In this document: one piece after another, positions 1,422 to 6,513 of the stretch
How the letters are laid out: each line of letters starts with the position of its first letter
How positions within the stretch are numbered: position 1 is the stretch's first letter
From: a virus
Lineage: Duplodnaviria > Heunggongvirae > Uroviricota > Caudoviricetes
DNA: 8,764 bases
Virus record (IMG/VR): IMGVR_UViG_2534681663_000019
Reading direction: 5' to 3' (one strand)
Position numbers and translations under genes: made by a program
The notes under the pieces: generated by a model
Told to the model about the DNA's origin: nothing
Database searches by the model: none
The model's input: the letters and a program-made list of their open reading frames with translations, nothing else

Positions 1422-3893
1422 TTAAAAATCAGCCTGATTCGGGATCAGTTTTTGCCAGATAGTTGAAACGTATTTTGCCTGGTAACGGGCATCATCCAGC
1501 GCATTGTGGCGCTCACCTTCGAATGGAATAGCCGCCCTGGCATCGAAGTCCATGGCTTTTCCCAGCTCAACGATTGTGCGTACATCGCGATCGTTGTAGT
1601 AACGCCACGGGCAGGGGATCCCCTGCCGTTCGTATGAACGGCGCAAAATCGTGTTGTCGAAGTTGGCTCCATTTCCCCAGACCTGAACAAAAAATTCACC
1701 GGAGTTTTCGTCGATAAATTCCCGCAATTGTAACAGTGCATCATCTAACGGGATTTCATCGGTCATAATGGCAGATTGCGCTTCGCGTGATTGCTTAAGC
1801 CACCATTTAATGGTGTCCCGATCAATGACTCCGCCAGCAGTTTCCAGATCGATAGTCTTACTAAATTCCGGTCCCATATCTCCGGTTTGCGGATCGAAAA
1901 ATATTGCACCTATTGAGATGATCGGGGCATCAGGATTTTTTCCCATGGTTTCAAGGTCGATCATTAGATGGTCACACGTCCTGCTGGTGGATGTGATTTC
2001 TTGATGACCGTTCACCTTAATTGAGTGATCTGCCGTCTCGCCAGTTTCATTATCGCTGGCATGATGCTGATTGCCGCCAGTATTCTCCTTGTGTGGATGT
2101 TCAGCGCCTTCCATTTCCTCCGGATCATCTTCCTGAACTTCAACCTGATACTCTTCATCGAATGTTTCCTGGTATGTTGCGTCGCCCATCACCGCGCCAC
2201 AATCAGGGCAGTTGCCGCCGCCGGTCTGACCGCAGGCGGTGCAGACTTTTTCCACTTCCTGTTGCGCCACTGGTTCAGGCTGTTTCGTTTCTGGCTCGTT
2301 TTGTAACGCATTTGGGCTGTTTTGTTCCGCTTTTTGGTAGTTCCGTTCCGATTCATGCTGGTTCTGGTTTACAGAATCGCGGGTCTGGATCCCCTTAACC
2401 CATTTCGGATCATTCGGGTCGCTAATCCCTGCAACAAATTCTCCGCGAGAGGCAGCAAGCAACTTATCGGCGTCAGGCTGGCTGATATTGGCTGCCTGCA
2501 TAATTTTGTTTACTTCGTCAGCGGTAACTTGTACCGGCCCTGGTTGTGCGGTCGTGTCAGATGCACCAGTATTTTGTTGTGAACCTGAGTATGTACAGTT
2601 TTTGCGGGCGAAATATTCTTCTTTCGTGATTTCAGTAGCCCCGGCAGCCAGTGCCTTATCCAGACCAGAAAGTTTGTTTGCGCGACCGTATTTTTCGCCA
2701 TCCTTGTCGGTGAAGAGGAAGTAGAACGGCCCCTCACGCTCTACAGATGGTTCGACTTCCACTTTGCATTCGGTTTTTTCGTTGTCCGGAATTGCCGTTT
2801 CCACTGCATCAGTTTCTGGTACTGGCGACGAGAGAGTATCAGTTGCGCTCTGATTTCTTCCTTCATCTTCAAACACGCCCTTTGTAGTCAGGTATTCAGT
2901 AATGTATTTGTTCAGTGCCACAGGGTCTTTGTGAATGTCGATCGGACGTTCACGGACAAGGCCAAAAATAGTCTGGCGGTCGTAGCGAAGGGCATCAGGC
3001 TGTTTGCGCATTGATGCCGAGATACGCTTCCAGTCTTCGCGGTCGTTGTCGATAACTTCATTTTTTGCCCAGCGATGGATGCTGCCGTCAATGTTTCCGG
3101 CATCCACATCACCAGGCCAGAGAGCGTAGGCCAGTTCGTCATCCAGTGTTTTCCATGTCTGCTTGTATTCGCGATGAATGGCAGCAATGACCAGGCTGAT
3201 TTTTCCTGTTGAATTTTCAGTGTGCTGTTGATTGACTCTGGCGCGGGCGAGATCAACAACAGACGTGTATTTTCCGGTTTCCTTGCGTTCACCTTCGCGA
3301 CGTTTTTTCCAGATGCGCATCTCTGCCTGAATTTCGGGCCATTTGGCACCAGGCTTACATTTATGCTTAACCCACCCGATGGCATGCAGCTTAAGCTCCG
3401 GATACATGGCGTTAACTTCTGGCATTTTCATCAACGCTTCAACGATATGTCCGTCGAATGTTGCCATGTCTTCCTGCAACAATTCCTGTGCGCTAATAAC
3501 CATATCAACGGTGATGTTTTCACATGTGTCGAACTTAACCATGAGAGCGTTCTGTACTTCAGGGGCCAGCTTGTCAAAAGTGACGTTCATCAGATCGGAT
3601 TCAGTCTCAACTGGGACAAAAGAAGCAGAATCCTCATCCCAGCGGTTTTCCTGCATATATTCAGCATCCCATGAATCGAGGGCAGGGCGGGGTATGCCAG
3701 GTTTATCCTCGCAGATAATAAATTTATAAGCGCAGTCCTGAGCAGCCGGATAATGTTCCAGGAATTGCCAGTGAAATTTTGCTCGAGCACGGCGTTCGTC
3801 GCCAGCTTCAATGGCTGTGGCTACAGCCACAGCGCCTTCTTCCCTTGTTGCCAGTTCGTCAGGAATGGCGGCGCAAATAAAGACTTTACTCAT
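1422..3893 (-). CDS. Large prophage exonuclease (823 aa): RecE N-terminal-like region, acidic linker with CxxC-x7-CxxC zinc ribbon, C-terminal DnaQ-like DEDDh 3'-5' exonuclease domain
   Basis: Uninterrupted 823-codon ORF. The C-terminal ~180 aa carry the DEDD motifs in order (MIDLETMG; VWGNGANFD; HNALDDARYQAKY), which is diagnostic of the DnaQ/RNase T superfamily. Residues ~475-506 (DKLLAASRGEFVAGISDPNDPKWVKGIQTRD) match, from memory, a segment of the non-catalytic N-terminal part of Rac RecE. The N-terminal ~300 aa probably correspond to the truncated Qin ydfE of K-12 (recollection only). Confidence 0.85.
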   Translation of the reverse strand: MSKVFICAAIPDELATREEGAVAVATAIEAGDERRARAKFHWQFLEHYPAAQDCAYKFIICEDKPGIPRPALDSWDAEYMQENRWDEDSASFVPVETESDLMNVTFDKLAPEVQNALMVKFDTCENITVDMVISAQELLQEDMATFDGHIVEALMKMPEVNAMYPELKLHAIGWVKHKCKPGAKWPEIQAEMRIWKKRREGERKETGKYTSVVDLARARVNQQHTENSTGKISLVIAAIHREYKQTWKTLDDELAYALWPGDVDAGNIDGSIHRWAKNEVIDNDREDWKRISASMRKQPDALRYDRQTIFGLVRERPIDIHKDPVALNKYITEYLTTKGVFEDEGRNQSATDTLSSPVPETDAVETAIPDNEKTECKVEVEPSVEREGPFYFLFTDKDGEKYGRANKLSGLDKALAAGATEITKEEYFARKNCTYSGSQQNTGASDTTAQPGPVQVTADEVNKIMQAANISQPDADKLLAASRGEFVAGISDPNDPKWVKGIQTRDSVNQNQHESERNYQKAEQNSPNALQNEPETKQPEPVAQQEVEKVCTACGQTGGGNCPDCGAVMGDATYQETFDEEYQVEVQEDDPEEMEGAEHPHKENTGGNQHHASDNETGETADHSIKVNGHQEITSTSRTCDHLMIDLETMGKNPDAPIISIGAIFFDPQTGDMGPEFSKTIDLETAGGVIDRDTIKWWLKQSREAQSAIMTDEIPLDDALLQLREFIDENSGEFFVQVWGNGANFDNTILRRSYERQGIPCPWRYYNDRDVRTIVELGKAMDFDARAAIPFEGERHNALDDARYQAKYVSTIWQKLIPNQADF

Positions 3894-3986: not shown

Positions 3987-4178
3987 TTAAAGACCTGCCG
4001 GGATTTCGATATTATCCTGGTGAATAACTTTATCGACCGGGTAACAGTTACCGGGAATTTTCTGTTCGGTTGCTGCAGTCATACACTCCTGCATTGTCCT
4101 GTGAACACTGACTGCAATATCAACTGGCTCTCCGGAAACAAGAAAAACTGTCAGAACAAGTGCAAATGCTGTATTCAT
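3987..4178 (-). CDS. ydfD: Small membrane/lysis-type protein, YdfD-like (63 aa)
   Basis: Start ATG overlaps the dicB stop as ATGA (translational coupling). Hydrophobic N-terminus (MNTAFALVLTVFLVSG). Size and sequence agree with my memory of Qin YdfD. An alternative in-frame ATG lies 9 nt upstream at 4187. Confidence 0.7.
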   Translation of the reverse strand: MNTAFALVLTVFLVSGEPVDIAVSVHRTMQECMTAATEQKIPGNCYPVDKVIHQDNIEIPAGL

Positions 4179-4363
4179 TGCCAGCATCCTTTTTGTATCG
4201 GACGTAAACGGGCCAACATTGAAAGAATGCATATTTTATTTAATAGCTCCCGTTCGTGTTTTCTCTTGTTAATGGCATCTTCAGTAAATACAGGGTTACT
4301 GATAGTGACACCAATTTCAAAACAACCTTCAGACGTATTAACGTTTGGTAATAACGTTTTCAT
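4175..4363 (-). CDS. dicB: Cell-division inhibitor DicB (62 aa)
   Basis: The internal ATG at 4363 is preceded by GAGGA with a 7-nt spacer. The product MKTLLPNVNTSEGCFEIGVTISNPVFTEDAINKRKHERELLNKICILSMLARLRPIQKGCWQ is 62 aa and matches my recollection of E. coli DicB nearly residue for residue. The longer 97-aa ORF in the track has no good RBS and is taken as an upstream extension artefact. Confidence 0.85.
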   Translation of the reverse strand: MKTLLPNVNTSEGCFEIGVTISNPVFTEDAINKRKHERELLNKICILSMLARLRPIQKGCWQ

Positions 4364-4532
4364 TATCGCGTCCTCAACAATGAGTTTTGTGATGCGGTGC
4401 CTGGTGCCTCCAGGTGACGTTAACCAGTTAACAATTAACGCCGGATACAGAGAATCCAACCATAACACTGTTTTTGGTTTTAACTGTTCCGCGTGCGCTC
4501 AGCCGCATTCACCGCATCACAAAATTCACTTT

Positions 4533-4590
4533 AAAAAGGGCGGCAGAGCAGTCACGGAGTAAAACTGATACCGCCAAACGTCACCAGAAA
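4533..4590 (-). ncRNA. dicF: DicF small RNA (53 nt plus U-tail), with its intrinsic terminator
   Basis: Minus strand reads TTTCTGGTGACGTTTGGCGGTATCAGTTTTACTCCGTGACTGCTCTGCCGCCCTTTTT, identical to the DicF sequence as I remember it. It ends in a GC-rich hairpin (GGCGG...GCCGCC) followed by a T5 tract (4533-4537), a Rho-independent terminator. It sits between ydfC and dicB, as in the dicB operon. Confidence 0.8.
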
Positions 4591-4931
4591 ATTGATAACA
4601 GAGGGCGTTGCAGCGGGGTTGTCACTTAAGCGTATGGTCAACCTGACAACCTGGTGTCCTCAACGGGGGAAGGAATAACCCCGCCATACTTACCGCCGCG
4701 CCATTTCGCGGATTGCCACAACCGGAAGCGCACGGTCGACGAAAATTTAACGACAGGCTATCTATGAACCAGCTACCTCGCCGTGCGCTTTCGCGTTATG
4801 GTCTGACTTTTCAGGGAAATATCCTTTCAGTAAACTGTCAGTGCCGGATGCTCACCCGTGTCCGGCGCACGCACTCCACCTCACCCGTGGAGAACTCCTT
4901 AATTACCAACCTTAGCTTCGTTGGTTATCTA

Positions 4932-5150
4932 TTAACGCGGGTATGTAATCATTCTGGCAATGCTTAATGCCGCTGCTTTTTCCAGCCTGGTGATATCCTG
5001 CTCCAGAGCGGACAGATTTTCAGCCTGCTTAGCCCTGGCTTCATTGGCCCATTTCAAATCCTGCGCTGCATTAATTTTCTGGCGCATCCACTCATAAAGT
5101 TCATCATCGGTATAGTCTGGCGCGATGATGACGGGTTCTCGTTTCTGCAT
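4932..5150 (-). CDS. ydfC: YdfC-like small protein (72 aa), predicted coiled coil
   Basis: ATG at 5150 is preceded by AGGAG (5156-5160, minus strand). The product is 72 aa, as for Qin YdfC. Identity by recollection only. Confidence 0.7.
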   Translation of the reverse strand: MQKREPVIIAPDYTDDELYEWMRQKINAAQDLKWANEARAKQAENLSALEQDITRLEKAAALSIARMITYPR

Positions 5151-5221
5151 GTCGGCTCCTTGTGGTTAGCGTTGCCTGCTTTTAACCACGTCAGGCGAGG
5201 TGGTATCCTCTGAGGGGTCTG

Positions 5222-5578
5222 TTACTCGAGAGGAAATTGGTTATGAATACAATCAAGTTTTCTTGCCCAGAATGTGGTGGCGAAGTCTTTGACACATCCT
5301 TTAAACCGCAGGGCTCTGACAGTTTCGCGGGAGCCATCTGCAAAAATTGTGGTCACCTTGTAACTGAAGATGAGTCCTCGCAGTTTGATGACGAAATCGT
5401 TGACAATATCTTCGGTGCACTCACCAGAGACTTTCTGAAGTAAAGGCGCATACCGCTTAGTTACCGCTCTGATAATTCTTACCTGTCCGGCAATGGCGCT
5501 GATATCAATATAAAGCGCCATCGCTGTTTCTTTGCTGATCCCTGGACGCCTTCCATTCTGATGTTTGACTTCGCCCAC
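5222..5578 (-). CDS. Alternative gene model: minus-strand ORF (118 aa from GTG; possibly the ydfA/ydfB-equivalent position of the leftward operon)
   Basis: GTG at 5578 is preceded by AGAGGA with a 7-nt spacer, and the ORF is in the position and orientation expected for the first genes after the pL-like promoter. It is rich in rare Arg codons (AGA, AGG, CGA, CGG), has no recognisable motif, and overlaps the plus-strand zinc-ribbon ORF in an antisense frame that tends to stay open by chance. Only one of the two models is likely to be fully correct. Confidence 0.25.
   Translation of the reverse strand: MGEVKHQNGRRPGISKETAMALYIDISAIAGQVRIIRAVTKRYAPLLQKVSGECTEDIVNDFVIKLRGLIFSYKVTTIFADGSRETVRALRFKGCVKDFATTFWARKLDCIHNQFPLE
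5243..5443 (+). CDS. Candidate small zinc-ribbon protein (66 aa) encoded antisense to the leftward operon
   Basis: ATG at 5243 with a strong SD (AGGAAA at 5231-5236, 6-nt spacer). Two CxxCG knuckles (CPECGG and CKNCGH) 24 residues apart, acidic C-terminus. Only one rare Arg codon. Followed by a possible hairpin (TGGCGCT-13 nt-AGCGCCA, 5494-5520) and a T-rich stretch. Conflicts with the minus-strand ORF 5222-5578, which is in the same codon register. Confidence 0.4.
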   Translation: MNTIKFSCPECGGEVFDTSFKPQGSDSFAGAICKNCGHLVTEDESSQFDDEIVDNIFGALTRDFLK

Positions 5579-5761
5579 TGAGAAATCCTCTGTTTCCCCT
5601 TAACGCCGGGGTAGCGGAACAAAAACCTGCTGCATAGTTATTAAAGTTGAACCCTGCCGTCATGTTCTTACGCCTCGGGCTGGCTACTTAACCCCTGACC
5701 ACTGCCTGGTAACTCGAAGTATTGCCCTGCATTCTGTAGGATGGGGTGAGGGAATGAATGA

Positions 5762-5790
5762 AGTTTAGAAAAACGAACTTTTCAGGTCAA
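5762..5790 (-). promoter_or_regulatory. pL-like sigma70 promoter for the leftward operon (-35 TTGACC, 17-nt spacer, -10 TAAACT)
   Basis: Minus strand reads TTGACC (5790-5785), then 17 nt, then TAAACT (5767-5762). It lies about 85 bp downstream of the repressor stop and upstream of the first operon ORFs. The -35 is overlapped by a near-palindrome AATGTTTTGATAAAAAAACATT that shares the TTTTGAT motif with the cro/repressor intergenic region. Confidence 0.45.
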
Positions 5791-5874
5791 TGTTTTTTTA
5801 TCAAAACATTTTAAGCAGGCAGCTGTTAAGCCATCACCACGATGGCATACAGTTAATCAAATAGATGAGGTTGG

Positions 5875-6513
5875 TTAAATATCTTGTTGAATTTTAAAGC
5901 ATACGCCCAATATGCAAGATAGATCATCCAGCATAATTGAAGGGTAGCGAGGATTCGTGGGGACTAAAAGAATATCCGGCCCTTCTATCTCCAGTTTACG
6001 AATGACAGGTGTTGTGGTCCCTTTGGGTAAGGCAAGGACAATATTTCCTGGTTGTACGGTTCGATCGGGATCAACAAAAACTGTTGAACCATTTGGGATG
6101 GAAACTCCCCCACCAGATGTTGACATACTGTCACTCTCTAGAACAACTGCAAAGGTATTGACCGGGATTTCTCCGACAAGCTGCACACAAGAGGTTATTG
6201 AGGAATTTTTCATATAATCACTCCAGCTTGCTGCCTGCTGAAGTGATAGTAGCGGAACCGTTTTTATCGGCGGTAAAGATAGATCAAGCGAATCACCTGT
6301 ATTTAACTCTCCTCCATTAAGAAGCCAATTTTCGTTTACTTTCAATATTTTTGCCAGTGAACTTATGTAACGCGAGGACGGCGCTCCTCCACCGTTCATC
6401 CATTGACTTACGGAGCCTTTTGATGCGCCAGTGCCATTGACAAGGTCTTTGCCTTTCAGGTTTAGCGCATGCATACGTTGGGTTATGCGTTCAGATATAG
6501 TTTGCTTGCTCAT
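5875..6513 (-). CDS. Prophage repressor, cI/LexA-like (N-terminal HTH plus C-terminal S24 autopeptidase domain, 212 aa)
   Basis: N-terminal HTH (ISERITQRMHALNLKGKDLVNGTGASKGSVSQWMNG). C-terminal domain has the S24 Ser/Lys dyad context (ESDSMSTSGG ... VIRKLEIEG) and a candidate cleavage region (QQAASW). Diverges from the Cro-like gene. No obvious SD, so possibly leaderless like lambda cI from PRM. Confidence 0.9.
   Translation of the reverse strand: MSKQTISERITQRMHALNLKGKDLVNGTGASKGSVSQWMNGGGAPSSRYISSLAKILKVNENWLLNGGELNTGDSLDLSLPPIKTVPLLSLQQAASWSDYMKNSSITSCVQLVGEIPVNTFAVVLESDSMSTSGGGVSIPNGSTVFVDPDRTVQPGNIVLALPKGTTTPVIRKLEIEGPDILLVPTNPRYPSIMLDDLSCILGVCFKIQQDI

Follow-up and report, generated by a model that had tools for sequence, protein, structure and literature searches.

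The window analysed here, an 8,764-nt stretch of viral DNA (IMG/VR record IMGVR_UViG_2534681663_000019), holds the early region of a lambdoid, Qin/Rac-like Escherichia coli prophage, in which two open reading frames (ORFs) occupy the same DNA on opposite strands: a plus-strand ORF for a small putative zinc ribbon and a longer minus-strand ORF that encloses it. We consider it probable that they form a nested antisense pair, both protein-coding, carried as one cassette of ~440 bp. Both frames are conserved, have start signals and are under purifying selection at the amino-acid level, evidence that comes entirely from comparative sequence analysis. The first-pass annotation of this DNA had treated the two ORFs as conflicting gene models, with the plus-strand gene the better candidate and the minus-strand ORF a doubtful one. 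Its case for a real, selected zinc-ribbon gene is borne out by family membership, invariant cysteines, conserved length and ribosome-binding signal, and a low ratio of nonsynonymous to synonymous rates (dN/dS) among changes silent on the minus strand. The choice between strands that it posed is not supported, however, nor is its doubt over the minus ORF, which is open, has its own start signals and codon periodicity, and is selected both outside and inside the overlap.

Two probable genes in one codon register

The zinc-ribbon gene lies on the plus strand at positions 5243..5443 (ATG 5243, TAA 5441-5443) and encodes a protein of 66 amino acids (aa), WP_001092153.1, with the sequence MNTIKFSCPECGGEVFDTSFKPQGSDSFAGAICKNCGHLVTEDESSQFDDEIVDNIFGALTRDFLK. 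This product, of 7.2 kDa and isoelectric point (pI) 4.2, has two knuckles, CPECG at residues 8-12 and CKNCG at residues 33-37 (cysteines C8, C11, C33 and C36), and an acidic C-terminal helix. The minus-strand gene occupies positions 5222..5521 and encodes 99 aa from ATG 5521, plus the stop (phrog_21318; WP_001240336.1; 11.3 kDa, pI 9.4); it encloses the whole zinc-ribbon gene in antisense, codon for codon. The shared register reported by the first-pass annotation is real, because positions 5243, 5576 and 5519 are all 2 mod 3; position 1 of each plus codon stands opposite position 3 of a minus codon, the overlap type named 'sas13' in the OLGenie nomenclature (PMC7531306). The rare arginine codons that it had remarked on are also there, seven of the eight in the 99-aa ORF being AGA, CGG or CGA, and those inside the overlap are rare because the plus-strand serine and proline codons TCT, TCG and CCG force them.

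Neither gene is new: the zinc-ribbon gene is already in RefSeq and the minus ORF is already PHROG 21318. When searched against zinc-ribbon families, a check proposed earlier, the 66-aa protein matched NCBIfam NF047912 (ECs_2282 family putative zinc-binding protein) with 57.3 bits, above the cut-off of 37 (E 1e-15), residues 4-59 aligning with profile positions 1-56 of 60. The Prokaryotic Genome Annotation Pipeline (PGAP) of RefSeq annotates the plus ORF under the above accession in strain M217, whose locus is 100% identical. Both CxxC pairs are present, with C8, C11, C33 and C36 invariant in all intact homologues, and zinc binding is predicted. The minus ORF, said at first to have no recognisable motifs, matches phrog_21318, a family of unknown function, over its full length (residues 1-99 on profile positions 1-99 of 99, E 4.7e-67), and its homologues from other genera match the same family at E 1e-31 to 1e-34. 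The GenBank phage records Evi, PPompW and vB_EcoS-813R8 annotate a 118-aa version of the minus ORF and leave out the zinc ribbon, while RefSeq calls the 99-aa minus ORF in a strain with a stop at zinc-ribbon codon 14, and goes over to the minus ORF wherever the zinc-ribbon ORF bears a stop. The protein named for this DNA thus differs between RefSeq, PHROGs and GenBank phage records, the choice of RefSeq flipping on one base, and pangenome and phage-gene catalogues therefore count one cassette as two unrelated 'hypothetical proteins'.

Profile searches gave no match to several families with known roles. The zinc ribbon stayed below the cut-offs of the Lar family (TIGR03655, 15.7 bits against 39.6, E 0.014) and of the MqsA/YgiT-type antitoxins (TIGR03830, 12.7 bits against 61.8; TIGR03831, 13.6 bits against 20.2), and has no helix-turn-helix (HTH) domain. 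Neither product matched SieB (PF14163 and the PHROG SieB profiles), the minus ORF had no Pfam or NCBIfam match of the YdfA (DUF1391) or YdfB kind, and PDB sequence searches with both profiles returned nothing below E 0.28. The position of the minus product, first in the pL operon or next after cro, had suggested an N-like or CII-like regulator, an idea that was dropped for lack of a profile match and of an arginine-rich N-terminus. AlphaFold modelled the minus product as three long helices and a beta hairpin (pLDDT 68.5, pTM 0.54, from eight sequences only). DicF was the sole Rfam match in the window, with nothing at the studied locus. Literature searches with locus, accession and family identifiers and with peptide strings found no paper on the locus, and the EDL933 start-site supplements held no match to the zinc-ribbon promoter sequence.

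Selection on the two frames

The DNA read for comparison comprised 15 lineages and ~140 further contigs picked by a conserved 23-nt pattern. Simple pairwise dN/dS in the overlap was 0.18-0.35 for the plus frame versus 0.29-0.86 for the minus frame; such values cannot decide alone because each frame shadows the other in this register, and we therefore used site-class counts, negative controls and a test of conservativeness. Changes were assigned by parsimony on a tree of 40 unique sequences to classes that are synonymous (S) or nonsynonymous (N) in the plus and the minus frame, in that order, and the per-site rates were dSS 5.5 > dSN 2.7 > dNS 1.7 > dNN 1.1. Were the plus frame coding alone, SS would equal SN; were the minus frame coding alone, SS would equal NS, and NS would exceed SN. 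The observed order fits a double constraint. The corresponding ratios are dNN/dSN 0.42 and dNS/dSS 0.31 for the plus frame, and dNN/dNS 0.64-0.66 and dSN/dSS 0.48 for the minus frame. Thus, the comparison of synonymous sites by strand that had been suggested as a way to choose one ORF finds selection on the plus frame, and on the minus frame too.

As negative controls, we used the antisense frames of YfdP and DUF2303, ordinary genes of the same phages. Changes creating a stop in the minus frame were seen twice where 10 were expected, both at zinc-ribbon codon 2, at which the minus ORF finishes in any case, whereas those in the control antisense frames were at expectation (25 against 24 and 51 against 54). 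The same-register antisense frame of the control genes has 1-10 stops per sequence, and the minus frame of the cassette has none beyond zinc-ribbon codon 2 in 12 of the 12 lineages counted, lineages L308 and L309 being open too. The two-ORF arrangement is far beyond chance.

The minus ORF can also be judged free of its partner, in the 78 nt beyond the stop of the zinc ribbon. There it is the sole stop-free frame of six across all sequences, and the 146 inferred changes fall 43/34/69 by minus codon position, with a dN/dS of 0.46, similar to the 0.30-0.43 of real genes of these phages. With a conserved hairpin (see below) set aside, the counts are 27/27/49, with 52 S and 51 N changes; one lineage has a 3-nt indel in this part. 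Inside the overlap, selection is visible at the amino-acid level in both proteins. Changes that leave the zinc ribbon unaltered make conservative replacements in the minus protein (mean BLOSUM62 score 0.68 against 0.02 expected, P 0.0002), and those silent in the minus protein are likewise conservative in the zinc ribbon (0.72 against -0.13, P < 0.0002), a bias absent from the control antisense frames (P 0.99 and 0.84).

Conservation, signals and alleles of the cassette

Protein searches found the zinc ribbon in Escherichia, Citrobacter, Klebsiella, Enterobacter and Serratia, and the minus protein in the same places. The family is narrow, since a profile search of 1.84 billion representatives returned 11 proteins only. 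When contigs of one genome per species were scanned with the zinc-ribbon alignment, the only two loci to come up, from a Bacteroidota and an archaeal genome, were spurious, and scans of viral contigs gave near-identical E. coli loci plus one new lineage, L235. Both ORFs are kept in the homologues of the five genera, down to ~45% protein identity. In every lineage with an intact prophage context the zinc-ribbon ORF has 66 codons with all four cysteines, save for an in-frame 12-nt deletion in L308 of Serratia, and its ATG follows an AAGGA-type Shine-Dalgarno sequence (SD); in all of these lineages the minus frame is free of stops for 93-103 codons or more. Most lineages have a strong minus-strand SD before an ATG aligned with or near 5521 (AGGAG, GGAGG, GAGGTGA or AGGAGG in L004, L005, L006, L011, L149 and L235), and homology between lineages stops just upstream of it. 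In the remnant L310, beside a molybdopterin enzyme, the minus N-terminus is frameshifted and the zinc ribbon is degenerate.

Start sites and N-termini of the minus gene vary between lineages. In Citrobacter-type loci (L006-L008, ~4286-4519, minus strand) the ORF runs in frame 78 codons further upstream and is called as 174 aa, and in the Enterobacter lineage (L009, L010 and L013, upstream of the minus ORF) another codon stands at the aligned ATG, and the upstream extension bears a CKSCG motif of its own. The first-pass annotation had started the minus ORF of the window at GTG 5578, giving 118 aa and a possible 19-codon N-terminal extension (5522..5578, minus strand). The frame is indeed open over 5222-5578, and this GTG has the better SD (AGAGGA, 5586..5591, minus strand, 7 nt before it), ATG 5521 being preceded by a weak purine run only. 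GTG and SD stand at the exact position of the ydfA start of an alternative cassette. However, the extension has no coding signature (changes 9/5/6 by codon position, with 6 S and 14 N), and outside the E. coli lineage the conserved start aligns with ATG 5521 and not with the GTG. As a conserved start for the whole family GTG 5578 was rejected, although it is still possible for the E. coli lineage.

The zinc-ribbon gene has signals of its own. Its SD, GAGAGGAA (5228..5235, plus strand), lies 7 nt ahead of the ATG, and an AAGGA/GGAGG core is found at a similar short distance in every lineage. Upstream of it, a candidate promoter (5182..5209, plus strand) reads TTAACC, 16 nt and TG-n-TATCCT, with the extended -10 at 5201-5209; a TATNYT hexamer is kept there in all lineages and the TG in most, and the motif is likely an extended -10 promoter of this gene. 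Between promoter and ATG, the aligned upstream regions reveal a hairpin, CCTCTGAG/CTCGAGAGG (5207..5233, plus strand), which takes in part of the SD and whose pairing is kept while the sequence differs in other lineages (e.g., CTTGGTGT/ACACAACCAAG). To judge from this pattern, it may control translation of the zinc ribbon, or serve as the 3' hairpin of the minus ORF transcript. Past the gene, a GC-rich hairpin, ATGGCGCT...AGCGCCAT, followed by TTTCTTT (5487..5533, plus strand), is a candidate intrinsic terminator of the zinc-ribbon transcript; it covers minus codons 1-12, with the minus ATG within its 3' arm, and RNAfold found a hairpin at this position in most of 14 lineages. A consensus scan for promoters and terminators listed neither the plus-strand promoter nor the plus-strand terminator candidate.

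A 37-nt element at 5173-5209, TTGCCTGCTTTTAACCACGTCAGGCGAGGTGGTATCCT, which forms two nested hairpins, is kept upstream of the zinc-ribbon gene in most genera; genomes of other E. coli also have it alone, at 100% identity, at unannotated sites. Its possible roles are those of promoter, processing site and recombination joint.

As for its surroundings, the gene order in the window is integrase, excisionase, an 823-aa exonuclease, ydfD, dicB, the DicF RNA, ydfC, the studied locus and the repressor. DicF (4538-4589, minus strand; Rfam RF00039, 76.7 bits) lies between ydfC (4932-5150, minus strand) and dicB, the repressor is a 212-aa HTH and S24 protein (5875-6513, minus strand), and Cro-like, YdaT-like and replication genes follow on the plus strand. 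The slot of the cassette, ~5151-5592, is filled in other E. coli prophages by ydfB-ydfA, whose DNA is unalignable with the cassette studied here, which upholds the earlier assignment of this place to ydfA/ydfB. In Qin, a single dicBp transcript, repressed by DicA, covers ydfABC-dicF-dicB (PMC10448788), and the studied cassette stands in for ydfA-ydfB at the head of a dicBF-type operon. The consensus scan listed one pL/dicBp-type candidate (5762..5790, minus strand; TTGACC, 17 nt, TAAACT), likely the early-left promoter, and, following the operon logic of Qin dicBF (PMC10448788), it is a candidate for driving the minus ORF, ydfC, DicF, dicB and ydfD.

Other observations concern the neighbouring genes. 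The repressor ORF (5875-6513, minus strand; 5976-6614 in L001) has a DicA-like HTH N-terminal part and a C-terminal S24 peptidase domain. For identical DNA over this ORF in strain M217, RefSeq annotates the C-terminal 113 aa only, as 'LexA family protein', which looks like a truncated start call. Within the exonuclease ORF (1422-3893, minus strand), the C-terminal exonuclease domain is preceded by a double-knuckle segment, CTACG...CPDCG, and by long acidic stretches of low complexity.

The placement of the cassette follows one rule, the minus ORF being co-directional with its operon in every case and the zinc ribbon always opposed. The cassette is the first unit after the early-left promoter here and in L006-L011, L149-L152, L308 and L309, and it follows cro in the early-right (pR) operon in L004 and L005. 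The counter-oriented position that the first-pass annotation had read from this locus holds across lineages, and its idea of a sieB-like placement fits L009, of the Enterobacter lineage, where the zinc ribbon has a true SieB gene as its immediate upstream neighbour on that strand. In L004 and L005 (~4001-4285) the cassette sits in the cII slot, where no CII/CP76/YdaT-like gene was detected, and the zinc-ribbon unit points through cro towards the repressor gene, like the lambda pRE transcript. In L011, from Klebsiella michiganensis, a 384-aa HSDR_N-domain protein (4930-6084, minus strand) is found between the cassette and the repressor region, a moron/defence position.

Alleles of the zinc ribbon were counted in 5426 complete E. 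coli genomes with 50-nt queries and a 28-nt seed required to span codon 14. The intact GAA was found in 865 genomes, and a separate, independent stop allele, E44*, was seen besides the TAA stop (E14*) at position 5282 in codon 14, whose frequency is discussed below. Among the ~140 contigs there was no broken minus ORF with an intact zinc ribbon, and the minus ORF from ATG 5521 was open in every stop-allele locus read, E14* changing the minus protein by Phe-to-Leu only. In approximately half of the E14* loci (L306-type, ~5570 equivalent) a 1-nt deletion, GCGAAGTC>GCGAGTC, puts GTG 5578 out of frame, and both genes may be decaying together in this clade.

Competing explanations and known systems

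Several points weigh against two functional protein-coding genes. E14* is carried by 516 of the 5426 genomes, O157:H7 and O103 strains included; this is the combination, minus frame kept and plus frame disrupted, that the first-pass annotation had named as telling against the zinc-ribbon gene, and it is found at that population level but in no deep lineage, so the zinc ribbon appears dispensable in some prophages, not spurious. The selection tests draw on 66 + 26 codons, a neighbour-joining tree with parsimony, non-independent lineages and a crude ancestral reconstruction. SS sites number ~2.5 only, and 4% of bootstraps give dSN/dSS >= 1. The antisense frame of one control gene reached a dNN/dNS of 0.76, which makes that ratio weak by itself, and in minus codons 1-12 part of the apparent conservation could stem from the conserved hairpin. 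On the side of expression, the promoter and terminator of the zinc-ribbon gene are pattern readings only, the SD of minus ATG 5521 in the window is poor, leaving its true start uncertain, and the literature search gave no transcript, ribosome-footprint or proteomic support for either strand. Sequence and fold comparisons gave neither product a relative of known function, and the AlphaFold model of the zinc ribbon is of low confidence (pLDDT 54.7, pTM 0.36), too poor to be used as a fold-search query.

The main rival, which we hold to be rather unlikely, is that the zinc ribbon alone is functional and the minus ORF is translated as a spacer that keeps early transcription coupled to translation until ydfC, DicF and dicB are reached. 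It accounts for a frame that stays open, for the conservation of SD and start and for an orientation that always follows the operon, and sits well with the stronger constraint on the plus frame in the overlap, the unconstrained N-terminal extension in E. coli, the control ratio of 0.76 just mentioned and a minus product without known fold or match to a family of known function. Spacer translation would nevertheless not lead one to expect that minus-protein replacements silent in the zinc ribbon are conservative as they are in no control antisense frame, nor a non-overlapped part evolving much like a real gene, with S and N in balance outside the hairpin. The AlphaFold model of the minus product is moderately confident, and the wobble base at zinc-ribbon Ser/Pro codons 7, 22, 25, 46 and 59 is only T or G, both of which keep the minus-strand arginine.

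A second alternative is that the plus-strand unit acts mainly as an antisense RNA repressing the first early-operon gene, like lambda OOP on cII or P22 sar on ant, the ORF being incidental or adding to it. Full complementarity to the 5' two-thirds of the minus gene, a transcript of ~320 nt bracketed by the candidate promoter and terminator, the DNA segment TGTGGTCAC-N-TTGTAACTGAAGA, nearly invariant in many lineages, and the course of the unit in L004 and L005, from the cII slot as in a pRE/OOP-type transcript, all speak for it. Such an RNA leaves the invariant cysteine codons, the conserved SD and ATG and the amino-acid-level selection on the plus frame unexplained, and the locus matches no Rfam family; we regard it as improbable as the main function, and as a role compatible with dual coding rather than an alternative to it. 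That the minus ORF is the sole real gene and the zinc ribbon a shadow ORF kept open by minus codon choice is very improbable, since, for all that the minus ORF has the placement and orientation of an operon gene and stays open in the E14* and E44* loci read, that nonsense changes in the plus frame are not clearly depleted (3 seen, ~4.9 sites) and that AlphaFold is less confident for the plus product, NS changes are rarer than SN changes, which alter the minus protein at codon position 1 (1.7 against 2.7 per site, the opposite of its prediction), the minus-silent zinc-ribbon replacements are conservative, the SD, ATG, 66-codon length and NF047912 membership are those of a gene, and the four cysteines need an A at four four-fold-degenerate minus wobble sites, invariant in all lineages, the minus protein alternating freely between Ala and Thr at these codons while the base that would change the Cys never varies.

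We thus return to the nested pair with both partners coding. The cassette at ~5151-5592 takes the place of ydfA-ydfB next to the promoter of a dicBF-type early-left operon, and the early transcript, starting at the repressor-controlled promoter near 5762-5790, would yield the basic protein of 99 aa, or of 118 aa with GTG 5578 as start. The acidic 66-aa C4 zinc ribbon would come from its own counter-oriented unit, which has a separate ribosome-binding site and probably also an extended -10 promoter and a hairpin terminator. Because the two mRNAs would be complementary over 201 nt and transcription convergent, the two proteins probably belong to different states: the zinc ribbon would be made in the lysogen, with the early promoter repressed, and the minus protein once induction has occurred. 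From the arrangement we infer that the two genes are transcribed as separate units, that their expression is mutually exclusive and that the zinc ribbon has an accessory role. By position, it behaves like a lysogen-expressed accessory gene, co-oriented beside sieB in one lineage; its activity would most likely be protein binding, in superinfection exclusion or anti-defence. It is possible, if tentative, that the acidic zinc ribbon and the basic protein are functional partners in a two-state module, kept mutually exclusive by convergent transcription and RNA duplex formation and acting on the same process, in that both might exclude superinfecting phage, as in Fc02, or one might antagonise the other. 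If so, bidirectional coding would be an old, conserved regulatory device in Enterobacteriaceae prophages of at least five genera.

Functional genes lying fully antisense within others are still disputed in bacteria and phages, and annotation pipelines forbid them by design. The locus, which is common in complete E. coli genomes, is a compact test case, with partners conserved together across genera, each with its own translation signals, and with E14* as a natural knockout of the zinc ribbon that spares the minus frame but for the Phe-to-Leu change. Furthermore, the cassette heads an operon yielding DicF and DicB, and antisense transcription could therefore affect their expression.

Among known systems, sieB of lambda is expressed from its own promoter in the lysogen. 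Like the zinc-ribbon gene, sieB of lambda, P22 and Rac (PF14163) is a small gene set against the pL operon beside its first gene; it abuts that gene, however, and does not lie inside it, and the zinc ribbon is small and acidic with no SieB match. The Lar proteins (RalR; TIGR03655, phrog_6422) are likewise ~60-aa products of prophage early regions with two CxxC knuckles, but the similarity is confined to these knuckles (phrog_6422, E 0.0098; TIGR03655, 15.7 against 39.6 bits). The Qin-type ydfA-ydfB pair shares the slot between the conserved early-left leader and ydfC, the ydfA ATG standing at the position of GTG 5578; it consists, unlike the studied cassette, of two small co-directional genes with no antisense partner, and shows no sequence similarity to it.

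The antisense genes of E. coli O157:H7 are described as evolutionarily young and narrowly distributed. They resemble the present case as protein-coding ORFs antisense within another gene, in the same species group, at loci where pipelines allow one gene; the partners studied here differ in being conserved together in five genera, at ~45% identity, with selection on both frames. Among them, ano/ECs2385, pop/ompA, asa and laoB reportedly rest on expression data (PMC5960689; PMC7103648; PMC6294744; PMC5810103). The closest documented analogue is the olg1/gene 10 pair of the B3-like transposable Pseudomonas phage Fc02, which overlap in antisense beside the repressor: a lysogen-transcribed small gene on the repressor strand overlaps the second early lytic gene, after ner/cro, and RNA-seq, cloning and protein gels demonstrated both proteins, both of which exclude superinfecting phages (PMC9936078). 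The arrangement is that of our cassette in L004 and L005, although Fc02 is of an unrelated phage family and its proteins are neither related nor similar in sequence to those of the cassette, no zinc ribbon being described there, and although the overlap studied here is complete, in the same codon register, and known through sequence comparison alone. Taken with these systems, the locus is an unusually well-conserved member of a known but contested class.

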